Of a stretch of DNA of 64,000 bases, positions 15,242-37,176 are shown piece by piece. The notes under the pieces are model-generated. The model did not search any database, was not told where the DNA came from, and saw only the letters and a list, made by a program, of their open reading frames with translations. The position numbers and the translations under genes are program-made. This DNA comes from an uncultured Nitrospiraceae bacterium (GTDB lineage Bacteria; Nitrospirota; Nitrospiria; Nitrospirales; Nitrospiraceae), in assembly GCA_963846575.1 (NCBI GenBank), contig CAWJWJ010000001.1:1184001-1248000 (forward strand), in the 5' to 3' direction. The stretch's first letter is position 1. Each line of letters starts with the position of its first letter.

Positions 15242-15271
15242 TTGACGGTTCCCCAATCACTTTGTTAACCT
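15242..15271 (+). promoter_or_regulatory. Putative sigma70 promoter for RAPP leader 1 and its operon
   Basis: TTGACG-N18-TAACCT with extended TG. Confidence 0.45.
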
Positions 15272-15298: not shown

Positions 15299-15604
15299 AT
15301 GCGACACACGAGCTTCAGAAGCTTCATCTGGATCCTGGCCTGCGTGGTCATTGTCCTGCTGGCCATGACGACCGGCAGTGCGGTGGCGCATGAACTCCAA
15401 CATGCCGCGCATCACAACGCTGCGATGCATGGAACGGGCATTTGCGCCTGGATGTGTGCCACTGCCGGAACGCACGTCGCGACTCCTGTAGACGGGACGC
15501 ATGTCTTCGGAGCGGTCAGTCATTTCCCGATTGACGTGTTCCAGGCGTCTGTCATTCAACCATTGGCTCTCGTCCAACCCCGCGCTCCCCCTGTCTGCTC
15601 CTAA
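15299..15604 (+). CDS. Exported His-rich CxWxC...RAPP leader peptide 1 (DUF2946/CruR-like putative arrest peptide)
   Basis: Signal peptide, HELQHAAHH, CAWMC, C-terminal RAPPVCS; first gene of the operon. Confidence 0.8.
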   Translation: MRHTSFRSFIWILACVVIVLLAMTTGSAVAHELQHAAHHNAAMHGTGICAWMCATAGTHVATPVDGTHVFGAVSHFPIDVFQASVIQPLALVQPRAPPVCS

Positions 15605-15732
15605 ACCCAGGCCGCCTGGGACCGTTTCGCTCTACGACGCAACACTGAGAGATCGTCAAAAGTCTGTGGCGTGGGAACTTGCGTGCCGGTGCGTAGTCCC
15701 TGTTCCGAACCGCCGACTTACGGAGACAATCC

Positions 15733-17004
15733 ATGTTTTTGGTCCGTGACTTCCGCACTGCCGTGACTGTTGTGGTGGGACTGCTCGCGCTGGGCGGTTC
15801 GGCCAGCCTCGCCTCCGCCGACGGTGAGCACCAGGCCGCCATCATACTGGAGAAACCATTCGCGCTGGTCCAGTCGACCGCCGCGTTGTCTCCCCCCAGT
15901 CTCCGGTTCACCCGCGCCGGGCTGTTGCATGCGGCCTGGGTGGAGAAAGGTGGCCTGCAGGGAGAGGTCAAGACTGCCGAGGTGGTAAACGGAAAGCCGG
16001 TAGCTTCCCCGGTTCAGGCGAGTCAGGCCGGGAGGGGGCCGGAAACCGTGCATCAATCTCCGGGATTTGCCATCGGTTCGGACGGCGCCCGGTTCGTCAC
16101 CTGGTCCGCCGGCAACAACACTCCCGGGGCGCTGTTCGCGTCGGATCTTCAGCTTGCCCGCGCGACGGACGCGCAGGCGTTTGCGCCTCCGATACAGGTG
16201 AATGACGACAACTTGGCCATTTCGCATACGTTTGAAAGCCTGTCCGTAGGGAAGGGCGGCGAAATTTACATGGCCTGGCTGGACGGACGGAATAAGGATC
16301 GAAGCGGCGCCAGCGCGATGTTCGCCTGCTCTCAGGACGGCGGGCTTACGGTCGGCAAGAACGTGGTGATCGACGGGATGGCCTGCCCCTGTTGCCGCCC
16401 GATGGTAGCCCAGGCGCCGGACGGATCGCTGTGGGTGGCCTGGCGCAAAACCTTTGAAGGGAATGTGCGGGACATCGTCGTGGCCCGCTCGACCGATCAG
16501 GGACACACGTTTACTCCGCCCAGCATTGTACGCCGGGACGGATGGGTGTTCGACGCCTGTCCGCATCGCGGCCCCTCCATCGGCTTCGACCGGACGGGAC
16601 GGATGTATATCGGATGGTACACGGAGGGCAAGGACGAACAGCCTCGGCTCTACATGGCCACCTCGGATGATCGGGGCGCGACGTTTTCAACGCCGGTGGC
16701 CCTGCATTCCGCGGTGACCTCGCTGCCGGACAACCTGCATCTGGCGGTCCACCCCGATGGCCAGGTCGCGGCGGTGTGGGAAGAAGTCACCGGAGTTCGG
16801 AAACGCGTCGTCATGCGCTTGTCCACGGATCGTGGACAGACTTTCGGGCCGATGCTCACGTTGAGCGCCGGGCCCAAGGCCGAACATCCCACGGTCGTCA
16901 TCCATGACAGCGGGAAGGTTGCGATCGGGTGGACGGAACATGCGTTTCCGCACAACAAGCTCATCGTGCAACAGGGGCAAGTGAATCCAGTGGCAGGGCG
17001 GTAG
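15733..17004 (+). CDS. Periplasmic BNR/Asp-box (sialidase-fold) protein 1
   Basis: Signal peptide; Asp boxes SQDGG, STDQGHTF, SDDRGATF, STDRGQTF; CPCC and CPH motifs. Confidence 0.85.
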   Translation: MFLVRDFRTAVTVVVGLLALGGSASLASADGEHQAAIILEKPFALVQSTAALSPPSLRFTRAGLLHAAWVEKGGLQGEVKTAEVVNGKPVASPVQASQAGRGPETVHQSPGFAIGSDGARFVTWSAGNNTPGALFASDLQLARATDAQAFAPPIQVNDDNLAISHTFESLSVGKGGEIYMAWLDGRNKDRSGASAMFACSQDGGLTVGKNVVIDGMACPCCRPMVAQAPDGSLWVAWRKTFEGNVRDIVVARSTDQGHTFTPPSIVRRDGWVFDACPHRGPSIGFDRTGRMYIGWYTEGKDEQPRLYMATSDDRGATFSTPVALHSAVTSLPDNLHLAVHPDGQVAAVWEEVTGVRKRVVMRLSTDRGQTFGPMLTLSAGPKAEHPTVVIHDSGKVAIGWTEHAFPHNKLIVQQGQVNPVAGR

Positions 17005-17051
17005 GGCGAACAAGCAGAACCATCCCTTTTGGAAGAGCAAGTGGAGGAGTC

Positions 17052-17510
17052 ATGAAGGCGCAGGCGAATCATTCGGCAGGGTGGGGCGCGGTCTGTGGAA
17101 CGGTGTTGCTGGCCTGGTGGTTAGGGGTCCCCGTCGTTTCGGCAGCCGACACGAAGGGCGAGAAGACGTTTCAGATCGTCGTGACCGACCAGCAGGGCAT
17201 CGAGACCGAACTCAAGAACGGTGTTTTTTATTGGGAAGAAAAATTGAGTGAAACCTCGTTTGTGCCCCATGAGTTGAAGCATCTGCCGGCGAAACGGGGT
17301 ACGGCCACGGTGAATATCAAGTTTGACCAGATCAAGCAGATCGACATCAAGCCCGGGGCCGACAAGACGTCGCCGACCATGACCGTGACCCTGGCCAACG
17401 GCAAGAACGGGGATTTTGCGCCTGCGGTGAACGGGAGCTTCAAGGGCGAATCAGATTTCGGACAAGTCGAAGTGCCTGTCGATTCGATTGCCAAGGCCGT
17501 TTTTAAGTAG
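17052..17510 (+). CDS. Exported hypothetical protein
   Basis: GGAGGAG SD, signal peptide, beta-rich mature part; in operon. Confidence 0.75.
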   Translation: MKAQANHSAGWGAVCGTVLLAWWLGVPVVSAADTKGEKTFQIVVTDQQGIETELKNGVFYWEEKLSETSFVPHELKHLPAKRGTATVNIKFDQIKQIDIKPGADKTSPTMTVTLANGKNGDFAPAVNGSFKGESDFGQVEVPVDSIAKAVFK

Positions 17511-17547
17511 TCGTGGCAGCGACGCATCGTTCGAAAGGATGCAACTG

Positions 17548-18731
17548 ATGGAGAATGTGCTCGGGGCGAGATCGTGGCAGTCGAAGCAGTCCGTAACGGG
17601 GTGGGGGGCATCGCTCGTCCTGCATGTCTGCCTTGCGCTGGCCGCGTTGGTTCTCCTGCCGAAAATGGCTGTGGTAGTGGAGCAGCAGCCCTTCACCTGG
17701 GACGTGGCTTTGGTTGAAGCTCCGCACGAAGTGGTGCGCCCGGCGGAACCGGCTCCGGCGCCGGTGGTTCAGCCACCCGCCCCGAAACAGGCCAAGCGTC
17801 AGCCGGTCCGGGCGGTCGAGCCGCCGCCCCAGCCCGTCACGCGGCCGGTGCAAACCCGGGTCGCACCGCAGCCGGTGCAGCGGGAGGTGCAGGCGGTCGT
17901 CGAGACGCCCCGGCCCGTAGATGAGATTCAGTCGCCGCAGGAAGTCGTTCGCGTGCAGCCCAAGCAGCTCTCCGCGCAGGAGATTCAGAAAACCGAACCG
18001 CTGATGCAGGCGGAGACGCCAGCAGAGGTCAAGCGAGAGGTTGCGGCGGCGGTCGAGCAGGCGGTGGTGGAGTCGGCGCCTGTGGCGGCTCAGACCTATG
18101 AGACGCAACCGGTCGTCAGCGCTCAGAAGATTGTCGAGATGAGTTCCCAGCCGGGTAATGAATCCACTGTGTCCGCGATGGTGGAGACGACTCCCCAGCC
18201 GGTTGTCACTGAGAGAGCGCCGGTCGAACGAGCCGCACCGGTCGACGTGCCGGTGGTTGAACCGGTTCAGGCAAGTCCCCCCCGACCGTTGCCCGGTCGG
18301 TAGAGGCAGGCCCGACAGCCGCCCCTGAGCCGGTGCCGGCACCGCCTGCACCGACGGCCGAGCCGACCACGCAACCGGATCCGGCCACACAGCAGGAACA
18401 TCAGGTCGTGGCCAGCGTGGCACCGAAAGGCGGGCCCAAGGCGGATTACAAATGGCTGGCCGAATCGTTGCACCGACGCATCATTGAATTGCGGCATTAT
18501 CCCAGCACGGCACGCCTGAATGGCTGGGAGGGAAAAGTCGTGTTGAAGGTCTCGATCCGTCACGACGGGCAGCTCAAGGATGTTGAAGTGGTGAAAAGTT
18601 CAGGGCATGACTCGCTGGATCAAGCGGCGATGGAAGCCGTGCGGCGGGCCTGTCCCCTTCATATGAAACACGAATTGACGGCTCCGATGGTGGTGCTGCA
18701 CCTGCCGGTCAGTTATAGCTTGAATCGGTAG
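17548..18731 (+). CDS. tonB: TonB energy transducer (frameshift at C7 run 18277-18283)
   Basis: TM anchor with ASLVLH, Pro/Glu-rich linker; TonB C-domain (YPSTARLNGWEGKV, SSGHDSLDQAA) lies in a shifted frame. Confidence 0.85.
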
Positions 18732-18780
18732 TCCACCATGATCGGATAGGATCTCCTGAGTCCGTCACAGGGAGAGCGGT

Positions 18781-20061
18781 ATGCGGATGAAACATGCTGC
18801 GAGAGCTGCCTGTGGGATCCTGGCGCTGTGCCTGGTTGTGGCGAGCCCCTTCGAAAGGACGCAGGCCGAACCGGGGCTGCCGTACGAACTCGGCCAGAAG
18901 TTCGTCACCGACCACAAGGTAAAAAGCCTGGTGGGACCGTCGGTGAAGATCGACGAGCAAGGGTTTGTCTCATTGGCCTGGATGGAAGAAGAGAAGGACG
19001 TGCGATCGGTGCTGTACGCCCGCAGCACTTCGCCAGGCGGACCAATGGGATCGCCGGTTCCCATCAATCGCCCTGACGACGTGCCCTATTGGAGACAGGA
19101 AGCGCCGGCCTTGGCTCTGGAGGGGGATGAGATCTATGTGACGTGGGGATTGACGCATCCCAAGCTGACCCCGCAGCAGCCGCTTGCAACCGAGTTGCGC
19201 CTGAGCCGATCGACCGACGGCGGACGTTCGTTTCAGCCGTCGGTGCTCGTGAACGATGATCCGGGCGTCATTCAACATACCTTCGATGCCGTGCATCGCG
19301 ACCGCGAAGGGCGGTTGCACCTCTCCTGGATCGATGGACGCGACGGGAAGAAGGAGCCGGGGACCTATGTGGCCCGATCGCTGGATCGGGGGCGGACCGT
19401 CACGAAGAATCTCAAGGTGGATGAGGGCACCTGCGTCTGTTGCCGGACGGCGGTCACCAGCGGTCCTGACGGCATGGTCTATGTGGCATGGCGAAAAATT
19501 TACGACGGGAATGTCCGTGAAACCGTCGTGGCGCGTTCCACCGATCACGGCGAGACGTTCGAGGCGCCCGTCATCGTCGGACAGGATCACTGGGTTTTTC
19601 CGGCCTGCCCGCATCGACCGGCCTCCATGGGAGTGGATCGAGAGGGGCGGTTGTATGTGGTCTGGTACACCGAAGGCACCGATGAAATTCCCGCCGTTTA
19701 CATGGCCTTTTCCGACGATCGCGGGCGCACCTTTTCGACCAAGCGAAAACTGAACCGTGCCGCCAACACCTTTCCCGACCATCCGCAGATTGCGGTCGAC
19801 CCGCAGGGACGGCTGGTCGTGGTCTGGGAGGAGCAGGCGCCGGTCAAGCGAGATGTGGTGATGAGTGTCTCAATCGATCGGGGAGCCACGTTTACCGCGC
19901 CGCAGAAAGTAAACGAGAAAAAAAGTCAGACCCCTGTGGTCGCGGTCAATGCCGAGGGGCTCTTCGCACTGGCCTGGATGGAACATGGCATGCCCGGTCA
20001 CAAGATCGTGACGCAGACGCTGAGGATGCCGTTTGCCGACCTGGCGACGGGATCGAAATAG
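18781..20061 (+). CDS. Periplasmic BNR/Asp-box (sialidase-fold) protein 2
   Basis: Signal peptide; STDGGRSF, STDHGETF, SDDRGRTF, SIDRGATF; CVCC and CPH motifs; paralogue of 15733..17004. Confidence 0.85.
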   Translation: MRMKHAARAACGILALCLVVASPFERTQAEPGLPYELGQKFVTDHKVKSLVGPSVKIDEQGFVSLAWMEEEKDVRSVLYARSTSPGGPMGSPVPINRPDDVPYWRQEAPALALEGDEIYVTWGLTHPKLTPQQPLATELRLSRSTDGGRSFQPSVLVNDDPGVIQHTFDAVHRDREGRLHLSWIDGRDGKKEPGTYVARSLDRGRTVTKNLKVDEGTCVCCRTAVTSGPDGMVYVAWRKIYDGNVRETVVARSTDHGETFEAPVIVGQDHWVFPACPHRPASMGVDREGRLYVVWYTEGTDEIPAVYMAFSDDRGRTFSTKRKLNRAANTFPDHPQIAVDPQGRLVVVWEEQAPVKRDVVMSVSIDRGATFTAPQKVNEKKSQTPVVAVNAEGLFALAWMEHGMPGHKIVTQTLRMPFADLATGSK

Positions 20062-20080
20062 CGGGCTCGATAGGGGACTC

Positions 20081-20611
20081 ATGACGTTCACCCTCAAAAG
20101 CGGACTTGTCCTGTCGGCTGCGCTCTGGCTGGCGGCAAGCGTCGCCTGGGCAGACGATCGACTGGCGGCGATGAAAATGTCGCGGGTGCCACAGGGGACC
20201 GTCGCCGTTCCGTTCGAGTTGAGGAGTCTGGACGGGCAGTCCATCCAACTCGCGGATCTGAAGGGGAAGGTCGTCCTGGTAAATTTCTGGGCCACCTGGT
20301 GCGGGCCCTGCAAGGAAGAAATGCCGGCTTTCGAACGGCTTCGGCAGAAGCTGGATCCCGAGCGGTTTGCCCTGCTCACGATCACGACCGATCTGCAGCA
20401 GGATGGCATCAGACATTTTCTGGCGAATCTGCAGGTGCAGCTTCCGGTCCTGTTCGACGAACAGCAGGACGTGTCACAGGCCTATCTAGTGCGTGCATTA
20501 CCGACCACGGTGCTCATAGATCGACAGGGGGTGCTGGTGGGCCGAGCAGTCGGACCGCGTGAGTGGGACGCTCCGCAGGCCGTTCAGTTGCTGCAGGGTT
20601 TCATGCAATGA
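20081..20611 (+). CDS. TlpA/ResA-family thiol-disulfide oxidoreductase
   Basis: VNFWATWCGPCKEEMP, LPTT; signal peptide. Confidence 0.92.
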   Translation: MTFTLKSGLVLSAALWLAASVAWADDRLAAMKMSRVPQGTVAVPFELRSLDGQSIQLADLKGKVVLVNFWATWCGPCKEEMPAFERLRQKLDPERFALLTITTDLQQDGIRHFLANLQVQLPVLFDEQQDVSQAYLVRALPTTVLIDRQGVLVGRAVGPREWDAPQAVQLLQGFMQ

Positions 20612-20928
20612 GTGACGGAAGAAAACCCTTCATCGGTCTGGCGGCCTTGCTGGCCGGGTCCTATCTGATCCTGTCCGTGTTGTCGTTGGCCTGCTCGGTC
20701 GAACATCTCCAATCGCAGACATCAGCTCATCACCATGGTGGGACCCTGTCCCATTCCGGTTTCTGTGCCTGGGCCTGTCAGGTCAATCCTACGTCTGATG
20801 CCGGGCCTTCCGCCCTGGTGCTCCACCCGCTGTCGATGGTCGCGCTCTTCGTCGAGACCAGCCACACGATTTTGACAGGCGGCACAGGATATCGTGCTGC
20901 CTCACGTGCGCCCCCCGTTCAGTCCTAA
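20608..20928 (+). CDS. Exported His-rich CxWxC...RAPP leader peptide 2
   Basis: ATGA overlap with the TlpA stop; hydrophobic N-terminus, AHHHGG, CAWAC, RAPPVQS; directly upstream of a TBDR. Confidence 0.8.
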   Translation: MSDGRKPFIGLAALLAGSYLILSVLSLACSVEHLQSQTSAHHHGGTLSHSGFCAWACQVNPTSDAGPSALVLHPLSMVALFVETSHTILTGGTGYRAASRAPPVQS

Positions 20929-21036
20929 TTCCATTCCATATTGCTAGGCGGGCCGGCTCCTTTTCTTGCCTTGGGCACAGGGACGAGAAGGGCCGGTTCT
21001 TGTGGTCGTGTGTCCGGTTTTGCCAGGAGGATGTGT

Positions 21037-23364
21037 ATGCGGCTTCGTCATGATCTTTTTCCAATTCAAAAAATGGTGTGTTGCTGGGCGATCGTAATGG
21101 GGCTGACCAGCGCCGGGTCCCTCGCGCGTGCGCAAGAGGAGTCTCCCGCCGGTTCGGTCGTGGAACAAGGCGGGCGGGAGCGTGAATTGCGGGACCAGTT
21201 GCAAAGGATCCTGCGGGAACTGGATGAGTTGCATCAGCCGCAGCCGGGAGGTGCCGCGGTCGTGTCTCCTCAACCGGAAGTCGTACAGGAGACGCCGGAG
21301 GGGCAGGCTCCGGTGCCCGTCCCGCATTACGAACTGTCGGACGTCAGCATCGTCAGTGAACGGATCCAGCGGCGTCCCGAAGGGATCACCCTGTCCGCCA
21401 CGGACCCGTCCGAAACCGAGTCCCAGCCAACCAGGACGCTCAAGGAATCCATGGAGTCGTTGCCCGGCGTCGTGCTCAGGCAGGCCAATGGCCCGCGAGA
21501 CTTCAGTATCTCCATTCGCGGGTCGGGGGTGAAAACGACATTCGCCGTGCGGGATATCAAGATGTACGAGGACGGGTTCATTCAGACCCAGTCCGACGGC
21601 TTGTCGCGGCTGGACATCCATGATCCCTGGTTCATGCGCACGGTGGAGGTCCTTCGAGGCGCATCATCCTCGCTCTACGACAACTACGCCCTCGGGGGCA
21701 TGGTCCATTTTCGCACCCGCCGCGGCAGTGACATCAACGGCTTCGAGTCGTTCTTCAACGGCGGATCGTACGGTTATCAGAAATATGCCTTTGCCGTAGG
21801 CCGGCAGTACAGCAACGTCGATGTGTCGCTCTTCGGGAGCCACGTTGTGGAGGACGGATTCATCCGCAATAGCAACTACAGCACGCAAACGATGAATTTT
21901 AACTTCCGGGTCAAGGTGGACGACAAGCAGAACCTCTATTTCAAGGCGATCACCAACTGGCTCGATAGCCGCGTGCCGACGCGTCTGACCATCAATCAAT
22001 TCAATTCCGATCCCCGGCAGGCCGGCGGCATCAGCAACGCGACGAATGCCGTCTTGCTGGCGCAGCGCCGACTGGACCGGCGCAACATCATCGGCGGAAT
22101 GTACGAGCGCCAGATCGATGCCAATACCGTCCTCACGATGGAAGCCGACTACGACGTGAAGGACATCAACCAGACCTTCACGCAGATCACCGACAACGTC
22201 AATCCGAACTACAAACATTACACCGATTTACGGCACGACGGGCGGCTGTTCGACATGCCGTTACGGAGTTATGTCGGCTTCTTCGTCAACCAGATGGAGC
22301 AGGAAGGGAACACCTTCAATAATCTGCAGGACTTCTTCGGCACGCGCGGGACCCTGGCGCAGAACAACCGTGGGACGATCAGAAACATCGGCGGGCGCTT
22401 CAGGGAGGAATTGGAATTCGTGCCCAAGTGGACCCTCGCCGCGGGCCTTGGTTTTGAGCAATCGCAACTGAGCGTGCAGACGATCAGCTACTCGGCCGGG
22501 GCCGTCAACGGCAGGGCGAATGCCGACCGGAGCTTCTCCAACTGGGCGCCGGAAGTGTCCATCACCTGGAAGCCGGCCGAAGGCTATCGGTATTGGACCC
22601 GCGCGTCAACCGGCTATGCAATCCCCGGGTTCAGCAACCTGCTGACCAATCCCTTTACCGGGCTGGCCGGCACGAACTTCGACCTGAAACCGCAAAAGAA
22701 CCTGAACGTGGAACTTGGTACGGAATCGCGCCTGCATAAGACGCTGACGGTCCAATTAGTGGGATTCGTCACCTTCGTGAAGGATGAAATCATCAGCCAA
22801 GTGGTCTCGAACACCGGTGGCACCGCCGCCATCAATGCCGATTCCTCGCAATACCGCGGAGTCGAGCTGTTTTATGACTGGCGGCCCCTGGACGGGCTGC
22901 GCCTGTCCGGCGCCTACACCCACATCGACGCCCGCTACATCAATTTCAGCGACAAGTTTCTGTCGGGGGGCGTGCCGACGGCCTTCGTGCGGGACGGCAA
23001 GATGGTGCCGAACGTGCCGACCGACGTGCTCAATTTCAAGGAAGCCTACGACCATGCCGGGAGCGGCTGGGGCGGGTGGGTGGAAACCAATTATATGAAC
23101 AGCTACTTCCTCAACAACAACAACACCGTGGGCATCCCCGCCTATTGGATCGTCAACGTCAATGTGCACAAGAACGTGGAGTTCCCGAACAACCGGTGGA
23201 TCCGGTTTGCCAAGTTCTTCGCCGAGTTGGACAACATCGCCGACAAGAAGTACGCGGCGTCGGGCAACGTGGTTGCGGACAGCACCGCCGATGCGAACAA
23301 GACCCTGTTCTTTGCCGGTTACGGGCGCGCCTTCTATGCCGGTGTGACATTGGGACTGTTTTAA
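21037..23364 (+). CDS. TonB-dependent receptor 1
   Basis: AGGAGG SD; plug motifs (PGV..ISIRGSG, VEVLRGASSSLY..ALGG); C-terminal GRAFYAGVTLGLF. Confidence 0.93.
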   Translation: MRLRHDLFPIQKMVCCWAIVMGLTSAGSLARAQEESPAGSVVEQGGRERELRDQLQRILRELDELHQPQPGGAAVVSPQPEVVQETPEGQAPVPVPHYELSDVSIVSERIQRRPEGITLSATDPSETESQPTRTLKESMESLPGVVLRQANGPRDFSISIRGSGVKTTFAVRDIKMYEDGFIQTQSDGLSRLDIHDPWFMRTVEVLRGASSSLYDNYALGGMVHFRTRRGSDINGFESFFNGGSYGYQKYAFAVGRQYSNVDVSLFGSHVVEDGFIRNSNYSTQTMNFNFRVKVDDKQNLYFKAITNWLDSRVPTRLTINQFNSDPRQAGGISNATNAVLLAQRRLDRRNIIGGMYERQIDANTVLTMEADYDVKDINQTFTQITDNVNPNYKHYTDLRHDGRLFDMPLRSYVGFFVNQMEQEGNTFNNLQDFFGTRGTLAQNNRGTIRNIGGRFREELEFVPKWTLAAGLGFEQSQLSVQTISYSAGAVNGRANADRSFSNWAPEVSITWKPAEGYRYWTRASTGYAIPGFSNLLTNPFTGLAGTNFDLKPQKNLNVELGTESRLHKTLTVQLVGFVTFVKDEIISQVVSNTGGTAAINADSSQYRGVELFYDWRPLDGLRLSGAYTHIDARYINFSDKFLSGGVPTAFVRDGKMVPNVPTDVLNFKEAYDHAGSGWGGWVETNYMNSYFLNNNNTVGIPAYWIVNVNVHKNVEFPNNRWIRFAKFFAELDNIADKKYAASGNVVADSTADANKTLFFAGYGRAFYAGVTLGLF

Positions 23365-23429
23365 CCTCAGTGCGCGCGCGGCACTCCATCTGCGAGCCGG
23401 GCGCACATGTACTCAAGGAGGAGATGGCC

Positions 23430-23624
23430 ATGAACAAACAGCTCTTGCGGGTGGGAGAAGCGGCGGATGTGTTGGCCGTGAGCCGGTGGACGATCTATCG
23501 ATGGGTTGAAGAAGGACGGCTGGAAGGAACCAAGATCGGGCGCGGCAGCTTGCGGGTGTTCCGGGCCTCGCTGGAGAAATTGGTGCAGAACAACAGAACT
23601 CAGGAATTGAAACTCACGACGTGA
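23430..23624 (+). CDS. Excisionase-like (HTH_17) small DNA-binding protein
   Basis: AGGAGG SD; LLRVGEAADVLAVSRWTIYRWVEEGRL. Confidence 0.85.
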   Translation: MNKQLLRVGEAADVLAVSRWTIYRWVEEGRLEGTKIGRGSLRVFRASLEKLVQNNRTQELKLTT

Positions 23625-25045
23625 CCGTGGTGCGGCAAAGGGAAATGATGAGACTCGTCGTAATTCTATGGGCCCTGGTTTTGTCCGGTTGTGCCGGCAG
23701 CCAGGGTGCCGGTCTGCATGGTGCGGAGCCGGACTCGCGCGCTGCGCAGCACGCGTTCGTCAACGGGCGTTGGTTTGACGGCAATGAGTTTCAAGCCGCC
23801 ACCTGGTATGCGGTTCAGGGGCGTCTGACCCGCCAGCGGCCCGATGGCCCGGTGGGAACGGTTGACCTCTCCGGTCGATTTATCGTGCCCCCGTTCGGCG
23901 AGGCCCACAATCACAATGTCGAGGGCACGTGGAATGTGGACACCGTCGCGGAACGATATCTCCACGACGGAGTCTTCTACGTGAAAAATCCGAACAACGT
24001 ACGGGAATTCGCCCTGCAGGTCCGGGGTCGCGTCAATGTGCCGGGAGGCATTGACGCGACCTTCGCCCATGCCGGCCTCACAGGGAAGGACGGGCATCCC
24101 ATCGCGTTGTACGAAGATGTTCTGCGGGTGAGCCGCTATAGAGACGTCATCGGGCCGGGGTCCCGGGGATGGTTTGAAAATCGGGCCTATATCATCGTCG
24201 AGACCGACGCCGACGTGGACGAGAAATGGGCGTTGATCACAAGCGGTCAGCCGGACTTTCTCAAGGTGTACCTGGTTCGTTCCGAGGACGACGAAGCACA
24301 TCGGCTCCCTGAGGGGTCGCCCGCCCGCAGGGGTCTGCATCCGCGCCTCGTGCCGCACATTGTCGGCAAAGCCCATGCGGCCGGTTTGCAGGTCACAGCG
24401 CATGTCGAAACGGCTGCCGACTTCCGCTCCGCGGTTCAGTCCGGCGTCGATGAAATTGCCCATGTGCCCGGATGGCTGGTGAAGAGCGCGGGTGATGTGG
24501 CACGCGCCCGTTTGACCGAAGCCGATGCCAGGTCGGCTCGCGAACGGAACGTCCGGGTGGTGACCACGACCGTGGCGGGACATGCGATGCCGACCGCCGA
24601 TGCCCGACATTCCGATTCGCAGCATGAGGCGCCTGCGCCGCAGCATTCCGGACATGCTGAGCCGGCGCTGGACGAGTCGGCTGGAACAGTGCTGAAGGAC
24701 AATCTTTCGCTGTTGCACCGAAGTGGGGTGCGGTTGGCGGTCGGGAGTGACCATGCGGACACGTCGCTGGCCGAGGCCCTGCACCTGCATTCGTTCGGGA
24801 TTTTCGACAACCGCACGTTGCTGAAGATGTGGTGCGAGAGCACCCCCGCCGCCATTTTTCCAGGGCGAAAGATCGGGCGGTTCGAGGAAGGGTACGAAGC
24901 CAGTTTTCTGGCGCTTGCCGGTAATCCCCTCGATGATTTTAGCCAGGTGCGGAGCATCACGCATCGCGTGAAGCAGGGTCGGGTGCTGGACGGGCATTTC
25001 GCTTCTGCCGGAGACGCTGTTACACCCGCACCGCACGCGCACTAA
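23621..25045 (+). CDS. Amidohydrolase-superfamily lipoprotein
   Basis: Lipobox LSGC; EAHNH, FLKVY, TAHVE, IAH, GSD metal ligands; KIGRFEEGYEASF. Confidence 0.85.
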   Translation: MTVVRQREMMRLVVILWALVLSGCAGSQGAGLHGAEPDSRAAQHAFVNGRWFDGNEFQAATWYAVQGRLTRQRPDGPVGTVDLSGRFIVPPFGEAHNHNVEGTWNVDTVAERYLHDGVFYVKNPNNVREFALQVRGRVNVPGGIDATFAHAGLTGKDGHPIALYEDVLRVSRYRDVIGPGSRGWFENRAYIIVETDADVDEKWALITSGQPDFLKVYLVRSEDDEAHRLPEGSPARRGLHPRLVPHIVGKAHAAGLQVTAHVETAADFRSAVQSGVDEIAHVPGWLVKSAGDVARARLTEADARSARERNVRVVTTTVAGHAMPTADARHSDSQHEAPAPQHSGHAEPALDESAGTVLKDNLSLLHRSGVRLAVGSDHADTSLAEALHLHSFGIFDNRTLLKMWCESTPAAIFPGRKIGRFEEGYEASFLALAGNPLDDFSQVRSITHRVKQGRVLDGHFASAGDAVTPAPHAH

Positions 25046-25104
25046 TACGGAATGTATCTCACGATCCTTTTTGACACCATGCATGTGGGCTCAAGGAGAA
25101 CACG

Positions 25105-27366
25105 ATGAAACGTTTACAGCATTGGGGAAGTATCTCGGTCTGCTGGGGGCTGATGTTGGTATGTGCGATGGACCTCTCTGCCTCCGTGGTCTTCGCGGTG
25201 GAGGAACCGTTAGAGCAGGACTCTCCCGTCGTCCTTGTGGAGCCGGTCGAGGTGCAGGGAAAACGGATCGAAAACATCGGGGACGTGAAAAAGGAACTGG
25301 CAAGGCGGCCGGGCAGCAACATCCTGATCGAAGAGAAACAAATTGCCGAGACGACAACCGTGAACCTTCAAGAAGTCTTGCAGTTCGCGCCCGGCGTGCG
25401 GTTCCAGTCCCGGTTCGGCGCGGATGAAGGCCAATTCCAGATCCGCGGCACCTCGTTACGCAATAATTTCCATCATCGCGGCATCAACATTCTGATCAAC
25501 GGGATCTTCTTCGGCGATGCCGACGGGTTTTCCGATTTCGAATCGATCGACCTCATGGCCTACGAACGTATCGAAATCTACAAGGGGGCGAACGCGTTGC
25601 GTTATGGCGCGAACAGCATCGGCGGGGCAATCAATTTCGTGCCGCGGACCGGCTATAGTGCCTCGACCCTGCAGATGCGGATGCTCGGCGGGAGCTTCGG
25701 CCTGGTCAGCGGCCAGGTCTCCAGCGGAAAAGTCCTGGAACCGTTCAAGGTCGGCAGCATGAGCGCGACGATGGACTACTACATCAGCGTGTCCGGCAAC
25801 CGGCAGGACGGGTATCAAGATAATAGCCAACAGGCTCGCGAGCGCGTCAACGCCAATATCGGCATTCAACTCGGTAACCATCAGGAGATCAGGGCCTATT
25901 TCCTTCAGGCGAACGTCGCCGAACGGATCCCCGGTTCCTTGACCAACGCGCAGCTGTTTCAGAACCCGCAGCAGGTAGGGGGACAAAGCCCTCCCGGCAC
26001 CCCTCCGTTCTTTGCCTGCAACCTGAACAACCAAGTCTGTAAATACGGACGCTACTATAACCTGCAGCGGATCGGCATCGCCTACCACAACGAGTTCGCG
26101 CCCAACCAATACTTCGAGATCATTCCCTACTTCTCGAATCAGTATGTGGACCATCCGATTTTTCAGACCATCAGGCAGGAGAACAACAATGTCGGCGGCG
26201 AGTTCCGGTATGTGAATTCCAATACCCTGTTCGGAAAGAACAACTCCTTCGTAATGGGATTTCAGCCACGCTACGGCCATCAACGTCAGCAGCGGTTCGT
26301 GAACAACAACGGAAACATCGGGGCCCTGACGCAAAACTACACGGCCAAGACGACGTATTTCGGGGCCTACGCCGAAGACGCGTTCGATGCCACGAAGGAT
26401 TTCACCATCGTGCTCGGCGGCCGCTGGGACTATACGGGACGCCAGGCGACGGTGGACAATTTCGGACCGGCCGGCAGTCCGTTCAATCCCACCACGCCGT
26501 CGACGCTGACCGGCACGAACCGGCCGCTGCAACATTTCGATGCGATCAATCCGAAAATCGGCTTTGTGTATCGCACCACCACGACCTCGCAGTTGTACTT
26601 TAATGCCAGCCGGGCCTATGAAGCGCCGCTTAATCTGGAGCTGCTCTCGTCGGTGAATGCGAACGGCACGCCGAACACAGGGTTCCTGAATCTGGACGCC
26701 CAGCGGGCCTGGCAGTTGGAGTTGGGCCACCGGGGGACCTCGGCCGACCGGCGCTACAACTGGGACGTCACGGTTTACAACCTCGAGATGCAGAAAGAGA
26801 TCCTGGCGTCGATCATCAACAACCAGGGCACATTCCAAAATGCCAATGGGACGCGCCATACCGGGGTCGAGGCCGGCGGCGGCATGGTTGTGAAGAAGGG
26901 CCTGTTCGCGCAGGGCGGGGCAGGACGGGAAGACAGCCTGCAAACGCGCGTGGCCTATACCTGGTCGCGTTTCAAGTTCACCGATGATGTGCGGGCCGGC
27001 GGAGTTGCGGGGCCGAATGTGCTGATTGCCAAAGATGGCAATACCGTCGCCGGTGCGCCGGAGCATAGTCTGAACATGGAAGTTCGATACGATCACCCGG
27101 GCGGGTGGTGGGTCGCGCCGAATATTGAGTGGTCGCCGTCCGGATTTTATACGAACTATCAGAACACGGTCAAAAATCCGTCCTATGCGCTCGTCAATTT
27201 GCGGTCGGGATGGTACATCGACGAGCATTGGACGCTCTTTGCCGAGGGACGCAATTTGACGAACAAGACCTATGCAGGCGCGGTGGTGGTCAACGATCAA
27301 TTCAATCGTTTTGCCAACCCGGGATTGGGCATCAGCGCCTTCGGCGGCGTGGAGTACAAGTTCTAA
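25105..27366 (+). CDS. TonB-dependent receptor 2
   Basis: FQIRG, IEIYKGANALRYGANSIGGAINF, NLTNKTY, C-terminal EYKF. Confidence 0.94.
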   Translation: MKRLQHWGSISVCWGLMLVCAMDLSASVVFAVEEPLEQDSPVVLVEPVEVQGKRIENIGDVKKELARRPGSNILIEEKQIAETTTVNLQEVLQFAPGVRFQSRFGADEGQFQIRGTSLRNNFHHRGINILINGIFFGDADGFSDFESIDLMAYERIEIYKGANALRYGANSIGGAINFVPRTGYSASTLQMRMLGGSFGLVSGQVSSGKVLEPFKVGSMSATMDYYISVSGNRQDGYQDNSQQARERVNANIGIQLGNHQEIRAYFLQANVAERIPGSLTNAQLFQNPQQVGGQSPPGTPPFFACNLNNQVCKYGRYYNLQRIGIAYHNEFAPNQYFEIIPYFSNQYVDHPIFQTIRQENNNVGGEFRYVNSNTLFGKNNSFVMGFQPRYGHQRQQRFVNNNGNIGALTQNYTAKTTYFGAYAEDAFDATKDFTIVLGGRWDYTGRQATVDNFGPAGSPFNPTTPSTLTGTNRPLQHFDAINPKIGFVYRTTTTSQLYFNASRAYEAPLNLELLSSVNANGTPNTGFLNLDAQRAWQLELGHRGTSADRRYNWDVTVYNLEMQKEILASIINNQGTFQNANGTRHTGVEAGGGMVVKKGLFAQGGAGREDSLQTRVAYTWSRFKFTDDVRAGGVAGPNVLIAKDGNTVAGAPEHSLNMEVRYDHPGGWWVAPNIEWSPSGFYTNYQNTVKNPSYALVNLRSGWYIDEHWTLFAEGRNLTNKTYAGAVVVNDQFNRFANPGLGISAFGGVEYKF

Positions 27367-27559
27367 CCGTCGGCTACGATTTCTATTGAGGACTCCCTCT
27401 GGGTCGGGCGCGTCCGATGGGCCGGGCCCGGGCTGCGCCTTGATTGGCGAGCCGGCTCGAGAGTGGGCGATCGCCGATTCAACATGTGATAAGTTATTTG
27501 GGTGCGGCAGCCTTCGATGGGGCCGCCCCGGTCACTTCGGGAACCAACCGCATCGGCTC

Positions 27560-29524
27560 ATGAACGGATTGTTGACCATCCTACTGTTGCTGTGGAGCCT
27601 TGCACCGGCCCATGCGGAGTCAGGCACGCTGCCGCTCCCTGGCGAGGCCTTTGTCGCGCTTCCCCGTATCTCCTCCATTGAACTGTCCCCCTCCGGCAAA
27701 CATCTCGCAGCAGTCAGGAACCGTGGCGGCAACACGGAACTCCTGACACAAACCGTAACAGGTGAGGATGCGCACGTCGCCGTCATCACCGACAATCGGG
27801 AATTTGTCATCACCTGGTTCCGGTGGGTGAATGACGAACGTCTGCTGGTCGGTACCAGATTTACGGACCCGGGGGCCGGGCTCGACTCGCAAGAAACACG
27901 GCTGTTATCGGTTAACCGGGACGGAACACAACAGAACCCCAATCTGTTCAAGCAGACTACCTTGTCCTCTATTTTTGGAAAGAAACATCTTCCTCAACTC
28001 CAGGATCGTCTCGTGGAAATTCTGCCGGGTGATCCCCGGCAGGTGCTGATCGCGCTCGACATGGAGCATCCCCTGTCGCCGGATGTGTACGCGGTGGATG
28101 TGTACTCCGGTGAGCGGCAACTGATACAGGCGAATCCGGGGGCAGAGCCAGGCCCCCGCACGGTGCTGCAGTGGATTGCCGATCGTACGGGACAGGTGCG
28201 GGTTGGAGTCGGCCAATTTCACACCACGGTTCGGGTCGTCTACCGGGCTCCGGACTCCATCATCTGGCGGGACCTGGCCGAATATGATCTCGCCAAGGAA
28301 ACCGGCCTGATTCCCCTGGCCTTCGACGCCGACCCTGCCTGGCTCTATGTCCGGGATCAACACCGTGGCCGGGCCGCGATCTTTAAGATGAACCTCGCCG
28401 ATCGGAGCGTTGACCGCATACTCGTGGCCTCGGATCCGAAGTTCGATCTCGCGGGAGAATTGGTCTACGCGCCTTGGAAGCGAAAGGTCGTCGGCGTGAG
28501 GTACGGCGAAGAAGACGCCCGGGTGTTGTTTTGGGACTTCGACGCGCAACGCCTCCAGGCCCGTATCGACCGGGCGATTCCGGGACGCGTCAACGTGATT
28601 CACAGCAGCAGTCACGACGGGCGCTTCCATATTGTGAAGTCGGGTGGTCCGGCCCAATCCCCGGACCATTACATCTTCGACGAGCGTGACGGTCGCATGA
28701 CATTGCTCGGTAGATCCTACCCCGATCTTGATGAGGACGAGCTGCGGGTTCCGAAAGCGGTTACGATCGTGGCGCGCGACGGGAAAGAGTTGCATGCCTC
28801 GTTGACCGTTCCCAGGAATCGAAATCCCGAAAAGCTATCCCTCATCGTGTTTCCCCATGGAGGGCCGGCATCGCACGAGCGGGATGCGTTTAATTACTGG
28901 ACCCAGTGGTTTGTGAGTCGGGGCTGGGCGGTGTTGCAGGTCGACTTCCGGGGATCCGAGGGGTACGGCGATGATTTTTTGCGGATCGGATTCCAGCGCT
29001 GGGGGCTGGAGATGCAGGACGATTTGACTGACAGTGCAGAGTGGGCGATTCATGCCGGCCACGCGAGCGCAGACCGGATGTGCGTGGTCGGGGCAGATTA
29101 TGGCGGCTATGCGGCCCTCATGGGAGCGGCCCAAACACCGGAGTTGTACCGCTGTGTCGTGAGTGTCGGCGGGGTCACCGACCTGCTGCAGATTGTGGGC
29201 GACCAGCGCTGGTATCTGAACCAGAAGCTCCTGGTCGAGTCGAAGATTACCTCCTGGTGGAACGATCGCGAGCGATTGCGGGACACTTCACCCGTGTTTC
29301 AAGCGAAGGACATACGGACACCGCTTCTCCTGATCCATGGGGCCATGGACCGCATCGTGCCGGTCTCCCACGGACGCGCCATGGCCGAAGCGCTGAGGGA
29401 CGCAAAGGTCACGACCTACCGCTATGTCGAACTTCCCCTGGCTGACCATGTCCTCAGTCGTGAGCAGGACCGCTTTCAGCTGTTTTCCGACCTGGAACAG
29501 TTCCTGAGTCAATACCTGAACTAA
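27560..29524 (+). CDS. S9 (prolyl oligopeptidase/DAP)-like alpha/beta hydrolase, nucleophile Ser replaced by Asp
   Basis: PHGGP, DFRGSEGYG, GADYGG, IHGAMD, ADH; signal peptide. Confidence 0.88.
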   Translation: MNGLLTILLLLWSLAPAHAESGTLPLPGEAFVALPRISSIELSPSGKHLAAVRNRGGNTELLTQTVTGEDAHVAVITDNREFVITWFRWVNDERLLVGTRFTDPGAGLDSQETRLLSVNRDGTQQNPNLFKQTTLSSIFGKKHLPQLQDRLVEILPGDPRQVLIALDMEHPLSPDVYAVDVYSGERQLIQANPGAEPGPRTVLQWIADRTGQVRVGVGQFHTTVRVVYRAPDSIIWRDLAEYDLAKETGLIPLAFDADPAWLYVRDQHRGRAAIFKMNLADRSVDRILVASDPKFDLAGELVYAPWKRKVVGVRYGEEDARVLFWDFDAQRLQARIDRAIPGRVNVIHSSSHDGRFHIVKSGGPAQSPDHYIFDERDGRMTLLGRSYPDLDEDELRVPKAVTIVARDGKELHASLTVPRNRNPEKLSLIVFPHGGPASHERDAFNYWTQWFVSRGWAVLQVDFRGSEGYGDDFLRIGFQRWGLEMQDDLTDSAEWAIHAGHASADRMCVVGADYGGYAALMGAAQTPELYRCVVSVGGVTDLLQIVGDQRWYLNQKLLVESKITSWWNDRERLRDTSPVFQAKDIRTPLLLIHGAMDRIVPVSHGRAMAEALRDAKVTTYRYVELPLADHVLSREQDRFQLFSDLEQFLSQYLN

Positions 29525-29624
29525 ATCGCAGTTTCGAGCGCTTCTGTAGCATCCATGAGCAGGCGTCGGTAGACAGGTATTCTGAAACGGAGTATTGAGT
29601 AGGGAGTTTGAACGGTAGCCTCTC

Positions 29625-29960
29625 ATGATTCAGCCATCACTCAAACAAACCTTGTCTCGCATCGCACTCGCCATGGCGGGGGTCTACTTCGTCCTGGCCA
29701 TGACCACGGCCGGCTGCCTCCTGGCCCACGCTGTGGCATCGTCGGGCGGTCACCACCAGCACTCCGGCACTGAGTCCCATTCGCTGCTGTGTTCCTGGGC
29801 CTGCCAGGCGACGTCGGATGCCGGGCCGATCAGTTATGGACCTGCCTCGGTCATGCGGGTCGATCAATTCAATGAGACTTCACCGCCTGACTCCATCATC
29901 AGCAGTGGAATCTCCTCATCCCTCCATGCTCGTGCTCCGCCGGTCCTCGCGAGGGGATAG
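29625..29960 (+). CDS. Exported His-rich CxWxC...RAPP leader peptide 3
   Basis: Hydrophobic N-terminus, GGHHQH, CSWAC, TSDAGP shared with leader 2, RAPPVLARG. Confidence 0.78.
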   Translation: MIQPSLKQTLSRIALAMAGVYFVLAMTTAGCLLAHAVASSGGHHQHSGTESHSLLCSWACQATSDAGPISYGPASVMRVDQFNETSPPDSIISSGISSSLHARAPPVLARG

Positions 29961-30343
29961 TTCGGGCGGAGCGCACGTCGCTAACAATTCGCGGGGACAC
30001 TGAACACTGTCCCGTCACGGCAAATCTCCGGGCGGGAAGATGATCCGTCCCCTGATCCGCCACCTCCGGGCGTTCGGCCCGAGCTATCGACTTGAGACTG
30101 TGACCTGGTCGTCCGGGAGGACGCTGTCCTTCCTGTATCAGGGTGGAGCGGGTTGCTGTCAGAGAAGCACGCAATGATTGATGGGTCTATGAAACGATGA
30201 GACGATCACGACGGATCCTGGAGTTGTGCACCCTTCTCCAGGATCTGCCCTCCGGGGCGAGAGGGGCGGCCTCCCCCCTCACCCCGGCCCTTCGGGGAGA
30301 GGCGGCGCGATTCTGTCCATCGAGAGGTCACACAGGAAACCAT

Positions 30344-31546
30344 ATGATGCAACCTGGAAACAGCATGCGGAAGGAATCAGCTGGTCGGCCGGGTCGGAAG
30401 AGTGCGTTTGCAACGGTCTGTCTCTGTCTGGCGTTGTGCGTGGAATTCGAATGGCAGGGCACCGGCCGGGAGCTCTGGGCGGCGGAACAGGGCGGATGGT
30501 CGCTTCTGCTGGCCAACGGGACGCAGGCACGGGAGGAAGCGCGTTACGCCGAGGCCGAGCATCTGTTGGCACAGGCGCTGCGTGAAGCTGAGCAAGACGG
30601 GTCCGATTCCGGTCGGATCGCGACGGCTGCCAATAATCTGGGGCTGCTCTACCACGATCAAGGACGGCTCGCCGAGGCGCAGACCCTGTATGCGCGGGCC
30701 CTCGGCACCTGGGAAGCGCTCTATGGACCGGAGCATGAACAGGTCGCCGCAGCATTGAACAATCTGGCGGAAATCGCCCAGGCCGAGGGAGACTGGGTCA
30801 AGGCGGAGCCGTTGTATGAGCGGGTACTGGCAATCGAGCGTAACGTGTTGGGCGCGGCGCATCCCGACGTGGCGATCAGTCTCAACAACCTGGCCGAACT
30901 CTATCGGAAGCAAGGCCGTGATGCCGCGGCAGAATCCCTGTATCGCCTGGCGCTCACCCTCCTGGAGGAAGCCTACGGTGCCGAGCACCAGGAATTGGGA
31001 GCCGTGCTCAACAACCTGGCCGTTCTTTATAAAAGCCGGGGGTTATATGTGTGGGCGGAACCGCTGTATTTGCGGGCATTGGCGATACGCCGTGCTCGAT
31101 TCGGTGACGAGCATCCTGTGGTTGTCACGAGCTTGAACAATCTTGGCTGCCTGTATCACGCGGAAGGTCTCTATGCTTCCGCCCAACGGTCGTTCGATCA
31201 GGCCCTGGCCGTTTCAGAACGGGTGTCCGGTCCTCAGACCTCCTTGACGGGGACGATTGTCGGCAATATGGGGCTGCTCGCGGATGAACAGGGTCTGTTT
31301 ACCGAAGCCCAGCTCCTTTATCAGCGCGCGCTCGTGATCCAGCAACGGCAACTGGGACTCCACCATCCGCTGGTCGGGCTCTTGTTCGAGCGGTATGCGA
31401 GGGTGCTCGAGCGGGTGGGGCAACCGGTCGAGGCCGGGTTGTATGCCGCCCGGGCGGCATCGATTCGTGCCGGGTCGGGGGCACAGGCTTCGAGGAAGCA
31501 AGCCGCCGTCAACGAGGATCCGTCCGCGGGAGCATTTTCGCGATAA
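30344..31546 (+). CDS. Exported TPR protein (42-aa kinesin-light-chain-type repeats)
   Basis: Repeated HPxVAxSLNNLAxLY...AEPLYxRAL; start uncertain. Confidence 0.85.
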   Translation: MMQPGNSMRKESAGRPGRKSAFATVCLCLALCVEFEWQGTGRELWAAEQGGWSLLLANGTQAREEARYAEAEHLLAQALREAEQDGSDSGRIATAANNLGLLYHDQGRLAEAQTLYARALGTWEALYGPEHEQVAAALNNLAEIAQAEGDWVKAEPLYERVLAIERNVLGAAHPDVAISLNNLAELYRKQGRDAAAESLYRLALTLLEEAYGAEHQELGAVLNNLAVLYKSRGLYVWAEPLYLRALAIRRARFGDEHPVVVTSLNNLGCLYHAEGLYASAQRSFDQALAVSERVSGPQTSLTGTIVGNMGLLADEQGLFTEAQLLYQRALVIQQRQLGLHHPLVGLLFERYARVLERVGQPVEAGLYAARAASIRAGSGAQASRKQAAVNEDPSAGAFSR

Positions 31547-32306: not shown

Positions 32307-32786
32307 ATGCTGAGCAGAGTGGCAGTGATGGTTCTGGGAGTGGTGGGCGCGTTGTCAGTCGAAACGACGGCGTGGGCGCTGCAGGCCGGTGGCGTCGAGG
32401 TCGGCGACCTCGAGACCGGTTCAGTCGTAGGCCAGCCGTTCAAGGAGCTGGACGTGGACGTGCAGCTCTTTGCCGTCGATTTGGGAACCGTGAAAACCTG
32501 GTATCCTCCGACGACCGTGATCGATTTTAAGGTCAGGCCGGGTAAGCCTGTCTTGATCAAGATTACGAACACCACCTCGACGGAGCGGGGTTTCCAGATG
32601 ACCGACAAACTGAATGAGGGTTCGCCGTTTGTGATGAAGGCTGAAGTGGTCCTGAAGCCCGGTGAAACCAGGTACATCGGGGTCCCGACAAGCGATCTGT
32701 TTTATGCCACCCAGGGCAACACGATTCTCTACCATGACCATCTCAATCCGAAACAGCCTGGCGGGAAGTTGATCATGTTGAAGTAG
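32307..32786 (+). CDS. Exported cupredoxin-fold-like protein
   Basis: AGGAGG SD, signal peptide; PVLIKITN...ERGF...VLKPGET...YHDHLNP...GKLI resembles cupredoxin topology. Confidence 0.6.
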   Translation: MLSRVAVMVLGVVGALSVETTAWALQAGGVEVGDLETGSVVGQPFKELDVDVQLFAVDLGTVKTWYPPTTVIDFKVRPGKPVLIKITNTTSTERGFQMTDKLNEGSPFVMKAEVVLKPGETRYIGVPTSDLFYATQGNTILYHDHLNPKQPGGKLIMLK

Positions 32787-32808
32787 CGTCACGATCTCGC
32801 GAGGAGTC

Positions 32809-32854
32809 CAGTGCCCCGTTCATCGTTTCGGATGGACGGGGCACTGTCATTTTT
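32809..32854 (+). terminator. Intrinsic terminator
   Basis: CAGTGCCCCGTTCATC-loop-GATGGACGGGGCACTG followed by TCATTTTT. Confidence 0.75.
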
Positions 32855-32949
32855 GGCGAGGGGAGGCTCCGGTCTTCGATGCCTTACGGGAGAGGCGGCC
32901 TCGTCAAAATCTCCGGTGAGGCGGCGGCGTTCAGGGATCGGAGCGATTC

Positions 32950-33510: not shown

Positions 33511-33606
33511 CACGGGCATTATACCAGAGGCATAAAGTAGCGAGCATTGTTTATAATGCCGAGTAGACTGTCGAATGATATGGAGCGTAGAAAAGGAGTG
33601 CATCGT

Positions 33607-34251: not shown

Positions 34252-34305
34252 CAGGTATCCATCGGGAGGCGCGGCGCCTCGCAACTTTATTTCCCGGGGC
34301 ATGGC

Positions 34306-37172
<2,867 letters not shown>

Positions 37173-37176
<4 letters not shown>

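Follow-up and report, generated by a model that had tools for sequence, protein, structure and literature searches.

CxWxC-RAPP leader genes at a TonB-dependent uptake locus of a Nitrospiraceae bacterium are conserved and are candidates for serial ribosome-arrest control

Three leader genes at one locus

The window analyzed here, a stretch of 64,000 nucleotides (nt) from an uncultured Nitrospiraceae bacterium (assembly GCA_963846575.1, contig CAWJWJ010000001.1, positions 1,184,001 to 1,248,000), carries a TonB-dependent uptake locus in which three small open reading frames (ORFs) on the plus strand, leader 1 (15299..15604), leader 2 (20608..20928), and leader 3 (29625..29960), encode peptides of 101, 106, and 111 amino acids (aa), respectively. 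Common to all three translations are a hydrophobic N-terminal segment, a His patch (a His cluster in leader 1), a His/Cys motif (H-x4-CAWMC, H-x3-CAWAC, and H-x3-CSWAC), a spacer of 41, 42, and 42 aa, and a C-terminal RAPPV. The RAPP codons lie at 15581-15592, 20905-20916, and 29931-29942, and 3, 3, and 5 residues follow. This is the design, including the RAPP codon positions, that the initial annotation of the window had described; its statement that the peptides share little linear identity also agrees with the pairwise values (25-29%). Signal segments were called from hydrophobicity and from an AlphaFold model of a leader, which contains a signal helix (residues 7-32), a helix bearing both cysteines (51-59), and an otherwise disordered chain (mean pLDDT 63).

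Across the whole 4.2-Mb genome, R[AGS]PP occurs within 15 aa of the stop in 110 of 215,029 stop-terminated frames, and a C-x2/3-C pair lies upstream of it in five of these. Three of the five are leaders 1-3, which fall within 15 kb, and the other two lack a signal segment. Another rule, which asked for a hydrophobic segment together with R[AGS]PP at the C-terminus, was passed by five of 71 frames, namely leaders 1-3 and two further leaders elsewhere in this genome (G000:C2:2249056, class E; G000:C1:1008915, class F; see below). These genome-wide counts, together with the selection on the protein sequence described below, rule out chance ORFs. The features by which CutF-like leader proteins have been defined are likewise all present: fewer than 150 aa, an N-terminal signal, PP in the last 15 aa, a Cys/His site (here CxxxC), and a same-strand gene no more than 1000 nt away.

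The leader genes are under protein-level selection

To describe the family, 101 leader rows from 62 stretches were compared (one non-RAPP frame, two duplicates, and hits by rule only were excluded) and sorted into orthologue classes A (leader 1), B (leader 2), C (leader 3), D, E, F, and G, or left unassigned. The ratios of nonsynonymous to synonymous divergence (dN/dS) and the proportions of nonsynonymous and synonymous differences (pN, pS) given here are pooled pairwise values among kin and are descriptive only. In class A (21 orthologues), dN/dS was 0.04 in the sensor and 0.32 in the spacer, and pN of RAPP was 0 at a pS of 0.37; in class C (19 orthologues), the sensor yielded 0.10, and pN of RAPP was again 0. 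The sensors of leaders 1-3 ranged from 0.04 to 0.14. Over classes A-E, dN/dS was 0.01-0.14 in the His/Cys block versus 0.21-0.52 in the spacer, and not a single amino-acid change was found in RAPP/RGPP within any of these classes, while the silent sites varied (pS 0.35-0.58). Histidines at the fixed positions -51 and -57 were as invariant as the cysteines. The spacer had been proposed to be conserved in length and variable in sequence, and this was borne out: it measures 41 aa in 21/21 class A, 42 in 20/20 class B, and 42 in 19/19 class C leaders, and spacer identity over the classes compared was 37-72%.

A profile built from the three leaders matched in 23 of 24 genomes of the same genus and in 12 of 16 genomes from other families of the order. 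When genomes were drawn from the phylum, matches were found in 23/23 of the same family, 5/10 of a second family, and 1/117 of the others. The profile also matched 590 cluster representatives; among the best 150, 136 ended in R[AGS]PP, and in all 136 the Cys-Arg distance was 46 or 47, a geometry that the profile itself favors. CxWxC, not CxxC, was present in 130 of the 136. Of 50 leaders from 15 genomes of other genera, 49 have a first Cys that precedes the Arg by 46 or 47 residues, and there are up to five leaders per locus. Motif and spacer are conserved across the family, with spacer length and RAPP invariant within classes A-C, and the three ORFs are conserved protein-coding leader genes under protein-level selection. 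Classes A, B, and C occur together on one contig, within 48 kb, in 12 of the 24 same-genus genomes; as to exceptions, class C is missing from G007, G023 carries no leader, those of G009 are dispersed, and the assemblies of nine genomes are fragmented. A tblastn search of plasmids gave weak matches only, 5 of 13 in Ca. Manganitrophus.

Homology to DUF2946 (PF11162), the family of the leader peptide CruR, is detectable below the Pfam gathering cut-off of 23.7 bits: leader 2 matches weakly (E 0.02, 16.1 bits), leaders 1 and 3 do not match, and 11 of 43 family members have a sub-threshold match (best E 0.0023). Among the best 20 PF11162 matches in 60 family genomes, 13 are leaders of this family, and clusters neighboring those of the leaders in the protein atlas carry PF11162. 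Because both the cut-off and the CxxC motif are missed, the leaders are filed as an unnamed branch related to CruR and CutF and set apart from PF11162 membership.

Leaders 1 and 2 head successive gene blocks

Leader 1 is preceded by a predicted sigma70-type promoter (15242..15271, plus strand) consisting of a -35 element TTGACG, 18 nt, and an extended -10 element TAACCT. In 21 same-genus class A leaders, the ATG is preceded at 25-40 nt by a TTGAC...TGTTAGCAT-type element, and TTGAC was present before class A leaders of other families in 3/3 cases. The strict promoter scan misses this promoter; scanning for promoters and terminators yielded no enrichment over shuffled sequences and no intrinsic terminator behind leaders 1-3. 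The 5′-UTR of leader 1 is short, pyrimidine-rich, and devoid of a Shine-Dalgarno (SD) site. Behind the leader, an intergenic region of 128 nt (15605..15732) forms, together with the end of the ORF, a pyrimidine-rich tract with C>G, a candidate Rho utilization (rut) site. The first gene block follows (15733..20611, plus strand) and encodes a BNR-repeat protein, a 152-aa hypothetical protein, TonB, a second BNR protein, and a TlpA-like thioredoxin, with intergenic gaps of 19-49 nt. The TonB gene, a single ORF of ~380-440 aa in relatives, is frameshifted here into 17539-18303 and 18333-18731 (break between 18225 and 18372), which reflects either an assembly error or recent damage.

The ATG of leader 2 overlaps the stop of tlpA (ATGA), and in 20/20 genomes, the leader 2 start lies within -4 to +5 nt of that stop. 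A conserved intergenic region of 108 nt (20929..21036) with a pyrimidine tract, two hairpins, and the GGAGG SD sequence of the receptor gene separates leader 2 from the second gene block (21037..29524, plus strand), which encodes a TonB-dependent receptor, an HTH_17 protein (23424-23624), an amidohydrolase, a second receptor, and an S9 peptidase. As the gaps through tlpA are below 50 nt and the start of leader 2 is coupled to the tlpA stop, leaders 1 and 2 are plausibly arranged in series on one transcript, leader 2 probably being a second checkpoint on the transcript of leader 1. Leaders 1 and 3 lie behind promoter-like motifs and may stand first in their operons; leader 2 is internal. The genes behind the leaders encode BNR proteins, TonB-dependent receptors, and HTH/TPR proteins, not Sec or YidC components. 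Leaders also persist without their first target, as would be expected of cis elements: in G001, leader 2 stands before the HTH/amidohydrolase genes, in G007, it stands before the second receptor, and in seven genomes, leader 1 is followed directly by the hypothetical gene.

Upstream of the locus, on the opposite strand, lies what we take to be a secA-like gene (11204-13907, minus strand); it appears to be split into ORFs of 332 and 611 aa that overlap, which hints at a further frameshift.

Leader 3 belongs to a probably separate, decaying module

Leader 3 is predicted to be a separate unit with its own promoter motif (29545..29575, plus strand), in which direct repeats with a period of ~10 bp (TGTAGCA..GTGAGCA..GTCGG) end in a -35-like TAGACA. 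The motif is conserved upstream of class C leaders and recurs before leaders in other genera, with three repeats in two loci. Scanning with its weight matrix gave two sites in this genome against none in shuffled C1. The one not at leader 3, G000:C1:1008431, was found without searching for a leader; it lies upstream of the class F RGPP leader, which is followed by a siderophore-type receptor. Among the fetched loci, which are biased in that they were chosen around leaders, 28 of 40 sites precede a CxWxC leader, and some of the remaining ones precede class F leaders, exbB, or receptors.

In class C, an HTH_17 gene lies behind the leader in 17 of 19 loci, mostly after ~360 nt of conserved noncoding sequence; its product is 66% identical to the HTH_17 protein encoded at 23424. 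In six loci of other genera and families, a leader is found 177-274 nt before such a gene. An origin of the HTH_17 gene from a mobile element was rejected because its position is kept across genera and families. The gene has been lost in this genome and in G001: what remains here is a vestige of eight codons (30174..30200, plus strand) after an internal deletion, and the RNA region has likewise lost ~130 nt. Leader 3 of G001 furthermore lacks a stop, and G007 lacks leader 3. The leader 3 module is thus decaying in this clade.

The sequence from the RAPP codons onward (29931..30090, plus strand) is conserved and is predicted to adopt two RNA states. In one (1:2), the RAPP codons pair with 29965-29977 and leave a hairpin at 30067-30081 (3:4); in the other (2:3), 29955-29977 pairs with 30067-30089. 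With a ribosome footprint on RAPP, a 21-bp 2:3 helix is predicted in 16/16 sequences; without it, the RAPP codons are paired instead in about 8 of the 16, freeing the small hairpin. Both folds are 96-98% paired across the sequences, and the RNA copy of this genome prefers 2:3 even without the footprint. The region is a candidate attenuator. A known riboswitch was rejected, as Rfam gave no match in positions 13500-34500 of the window; in the loci of five relatives, there was one chance-level match (E 1.8). A double-hairpin element (30210..30297, plus strand) between the HTH gene and the next gene, which encodes a TPR protein (~30344-31546, plus strand), is conserved in nearly all class C loci and also lacks an Rfam match.

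Paralogous leaders keep the geometry with other ligands

The class E leader of this genome (L093:6060-6377, minus strand, on G000:C2) contains one Cys (HEH..CQWVQYH), has a sensor dN/dS of 0.01, and precedes a receptor with an N-terminal carboxypeptidase-regulatory-like domain. The class F leader (L110:2018-2416; G000:C1:1008517-1008915) combines a CxxC near the signal with His, WAC, and RGPP; it has a direct-repeat promoter like that of leader 3 and a siderophore-type receptor behind it, and in G011 and G013, it precedes PepSY_TM. Class G is a His-rich, one-Cys leader with CxWxxH and RGPP; in the unit at L077:2774-6593, it is followed by genes for two GTPases, the first of them COG0523, with one for a likely WD40-like protein in between. 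Classes E and G therefore retain the geometry with a single Cys (CxWxxxH and CxWxxH, respectively). COG0523 proteins are linked to zinc limitation, and the class G unit is a candidate for zinc or cobalt. For leaders 1-3, copper is the most likely metal to be sensed, judging from the analogy with CruR and CutF and from the genes CopA (4.3 kb downstream), NosL, SMBP, and P460; NosL, SMBP, and P460, along with PepSY_TM and COG0523, stand behind paralogous leaders.

Downstream of the locus, positions 32307-38684 hold genes for a cupredoxin-like protein (weak similarity, E 0.12), a DsbA-like protein (minus strand, by similarity), CopA with YHS repeats, and presumably an HtrA-type protease. In G164, an IS1595-family transposase gene (L102:4658-5611) lies between two leaders.

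Proposed mechanism and alternatives

The peptides are very probably cis-acting arrest leaders of some kind. An arrest of the CruR/CutF type is suggested because RAPP is invariant, the His/Cys block is conserved, the spacer is constant in length, and the leaders are placed before TonB-uptake genes. Selection, fixed geometry, and the sub-threshold homology to PF11162 thus lend support to the initial annotation, which had assigned them to this kind. As to direction, the logic of CruR, in which a stall keeps downstream expression on and metal turns it off, is somewhat favored. Each leader would be exported during its synthesis, and the ribosome would stall at RAPP. When the ribosome stands at the predicted arrest point, 44-49 residues would separate the P site from the Cys pair and 53-66 from the His cluster; with the arithmetic of 30 residues in the tunnel and 17 across the membrane (Ozturk 2023; 10.1101/2022.11.11.516240), this would place the His/Cys site at the periplasmic mouth of SecY. 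As long as metal is scarce, the stalled ribosome would cover the pyrimidine-rich leader end and transcription would continue. A metal ion, copper being the likeliest, would bind the His/CxWxC site at the translocon mouth, fold the CxWxC helix with the upstream His, and pull the chain out of arrest, and the ribosome would be released. Rho would then gain access to the mRNA (leaders 1 and 2), or the RNA switch would flip (leader 3). In such a scheme, leader 1 would gate operon entry; leader 2, restarted by ribosomes finishing tlpA, would act ahead of the receptors; and leader 3 would run in parallel from a promoter of its own, its usual target, the small HTH_17 DNA-binding protein, being deleted in this genome.

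The composition of the leader ends was compared with the 1681 ORF ends of this genome. For C-G, leader 1 ranks at the 97.7th percentile, leader 2 at the 86.7th, and leader 3 at the 78.9th; for pyrimidines, their percentiles are 98.8, 95.8, and 78.7. In classes A, B, and D, G is depleted at silent sites (class A 0.21 versus 0.34 in the background), and a Rho gene is present in this genome. To judge from the sequence, Rho-type transcription attenuation accounts for the mRNA signature no worse than regulation at the ribosome-binding site would. The proposal of tiered translational control holds in part: leaders 1 and 2 are plausibly serial, but leader 3 has a promoter motif of its own.

A number of observations weigh against the CruR-type reading. 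The Arg-Ala-Pro-Pro codons themselves contribute part of the C>G signal. No family genome (0/61) reaches the PF11162 cut-off. For the leader 3 folds, covariation was not above shuffles, and the U-tract behind hairpin 3:4 is poor. The locus had been taken for a metal-uptake locus; TonB-dependent uptake is clear, but the nearest solved structure to the first receptor is YncD/PqqU, a transporter of pyrroloquinoline quinone (PQQ), and this, together with the amidohydrolase and S9 peptidase of the second block, means that the cargo may not be a metal. CutF shares CxxxC and needs its signal peptide, yet works in the opposite direction. Finally, in the consensus fold behind leader 2, the stop region pairs with, and thus hides, the GGAGG SD sequence, which favors translational control, and in this genome, the predicted stall footprint lowers the energy of SD opening from 12.2 to 9.2 kcal/mol.

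The most probable of the alternatives, although unlikely, is the following: the leaders would arrest as CutF or SecM do and control translation, the stall melting a stem that hides the SD sequence and metal possibly prolonging the stall. CutF itself combines CxxxC with an essential Sec signal and an SD-stem mechanism, and for the class E paralogue, the predicted footprint reduces the opening energy from 17.2 to 8.5 kcal/mol. Over the orthologues, however, there was no consistent effect, the mean being below 1 kcal/mol in each of the classes A-D (start codons were assigned automatically, and none was found in 1/21 A, 2/10 D, and 2/18 C rows); among leader 2 orthologues, the effect was weak, occurring in 8/20 versus 5/20 for a shifted control. 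The intergenic regions behind the leaders (108-370 nt) are long, like that of cruR-bfrG (162 nt), and metal would be expected to shut importers off, not on.

Less likely still is that the arrest leaders sense not metal but the thiol redox state of the periplasm, through a CxWxC disulfide, or the activity of the Sec translocon. TlpA-like genes immediately before classes B and D, the DsbA-like gene nearby, and the YncD/PqqU-like first receptor, for which a metal cargo is putative, would suit such a role, as would published RAPP leaders upstream of thioredoxin and sec genes (PMC12992588). Against it stand the histidines at -51 and -57, which are as invariant as the cysteines, and classes E and G, which keep the geometry with one Cys, so that no CxWxC disulfide is possible there; class G moreover heads COG0523 metallochaperone genes. 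That the peptides act in trans, as small secreted chaperones or storage peptides that bind metal, with RAPP incidental, is very improbable: cleavable-looking signal segments, dense His/Cys sites, and neighboring atlas clusters named "CbtB family" (automatic names only) would fit, but RAPP/RGPP is invariant at a fixed distance behind a disordered, variable spacer and is a motif avoided in Nitrospirota proteomes (PMC12992588), and the leaders always lie directly 5′ of a same-strand gene, with starts that are SD-less or coupled.

Extending the CruR-type reading to the family gives a broader picture, which as a whole is doubtful. Nitrospiraceae would run an entire metal-uptake regulon on arrest peptides, with one ruler and swapped ligands (CxWxC, CxWxxxH, and CxWxxH) reading different metals, two checkpoints in series, and the RNA switch of leader 3 controlling a BldC-like HTH_17 protein that acts on direct-repeat promoters of leaders, receptors, and exbBD. 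If true, an arrest peptide would head a transcriptional cascade with feedback. To our knowledge, only two metal-sensing arrest leaders have been dissected so far, and they work in opposite directions; many natural variants of one geometry, differing in ligands and targets, could reveal what in a leader determines which metal it reads and in which direction it acts. The family also points to how Nitrospira, key nitrifiers in soils and water treatment, may control trace-metal uptake, and such control would need no dedicated metal-binding transcription factor at these genes.

Comparison with known systems

Spacer conservation, the CxxxC motif, and the translocon-ruler model, which belonged to an arrangement the initial annotation did not know to be described, are already published (Roy 2022; Ozturk 2023). 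The literature search turned up neither serial use on one transcript nor a leader that stands above a DNA-binding protein; within that search, what is new is the serial and translationally coupled use, the family-wide expansion with swapped ligands, and the module of leader 3, RNA switch, HTH_17, and direct repeats that is broken in this genome. Leader 2 orthologues (e.g., NIDE0634 before the receptor NIDE0635), leader-1-like peptides, and class E are among the RAPP upstream ORFs (uORFs) listed by Fujiwara 2025 (PMC12992588), some genomes having two per locus; no discussion or test of the CxWxC, serial use, or HTH link of the Nitrospira peptides was found in the available text. None of six locus tags from NIDE0629-0636 was named in the literature searched, and the word "Nitrospira" was not found in the searched supplements of Roy 2022 or in the small accessible part of that of Ozturk 2023.

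Among the closest known systems is CruR (Bp2923) of Bordetella pertussis, likewise a small exported uORF with a Cys motif at a fixed distance from RAPP, RAPP 3 residues before the stop, a long intergenic region (cruR-bfrG) with a C>G tract, a TonB-dependent receptor downstream, and AhpC-TSA and PepSY_TM as neighbors. The CxxC-RAPP spacing is constant to 1-2 residues in more than 2000 DUF2946 proteins, whose neighbors include receptors and AhpC-TSA, and five additional spacer residues impair regulation (Roy 2022, PMC9426467). In vitro, CruR halts translation with Pro-Pro occupying the P and A sites; RAPP and RGPP can cause arrest in several contexts, and proteomes of Nitrospirota contain RAPP less often than expected (mean bias 0.14; PMC12992588). 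Unlike CruR, with CxxC and 45 residues, the Nitrospira leaders have CxWxC plus a His cluster and 41 or 42 residues; their receptors are YncD/PqqU-like; and there are several per locus, one of them internal and coupled to tlpA, whereas cruR homologues are reported in first position.

With CutF of Rhodobacter capsulatus, the leaders share CxxxC, a Sec signal, and ~45 aa between the metal site and the Pro-rich end, a length proposed to set the site in the periplasmic vestibule of SecY; His-only variants among 5,334 CutF-like proteins have been linked to other metals (10.1101/2022.11.11.516240). CutF, however, ends in poly-Pro, stalls on copper (10.1101/2025.02.05.636593), and opens the SD stem of a detoxifying oxidase; the Nitrospira leaders end in RAPP, precede importers, and gave no consistent anti-SD effect in the footprint models. 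Peptides of the ApdA/ApdP/SecM class have the same arrest core, a small secretory protein in which RAPP/RGPP close to the C-terminus does not vary, but stand upstream of sec/yidC genes, which the Nitrospira leaders do not. As for the usual target of leader 3, BldC, a small winged helix-turn-helix (wHTH) protein, binds variable numbers of direct repeats head to tail (Schumacher 2018, PMC5859096). The Nitrospira HTH_17 protein is likewise small, consists of the wHTH only, and is of the same Pfam-type fold class as BldC and Xis-like proteins; its binding to the repeats is putative, and a response regulator could equally bind them, but the two to three repeats at the leader 3 promoter would suit head-to-tail binding of the BldC kind.

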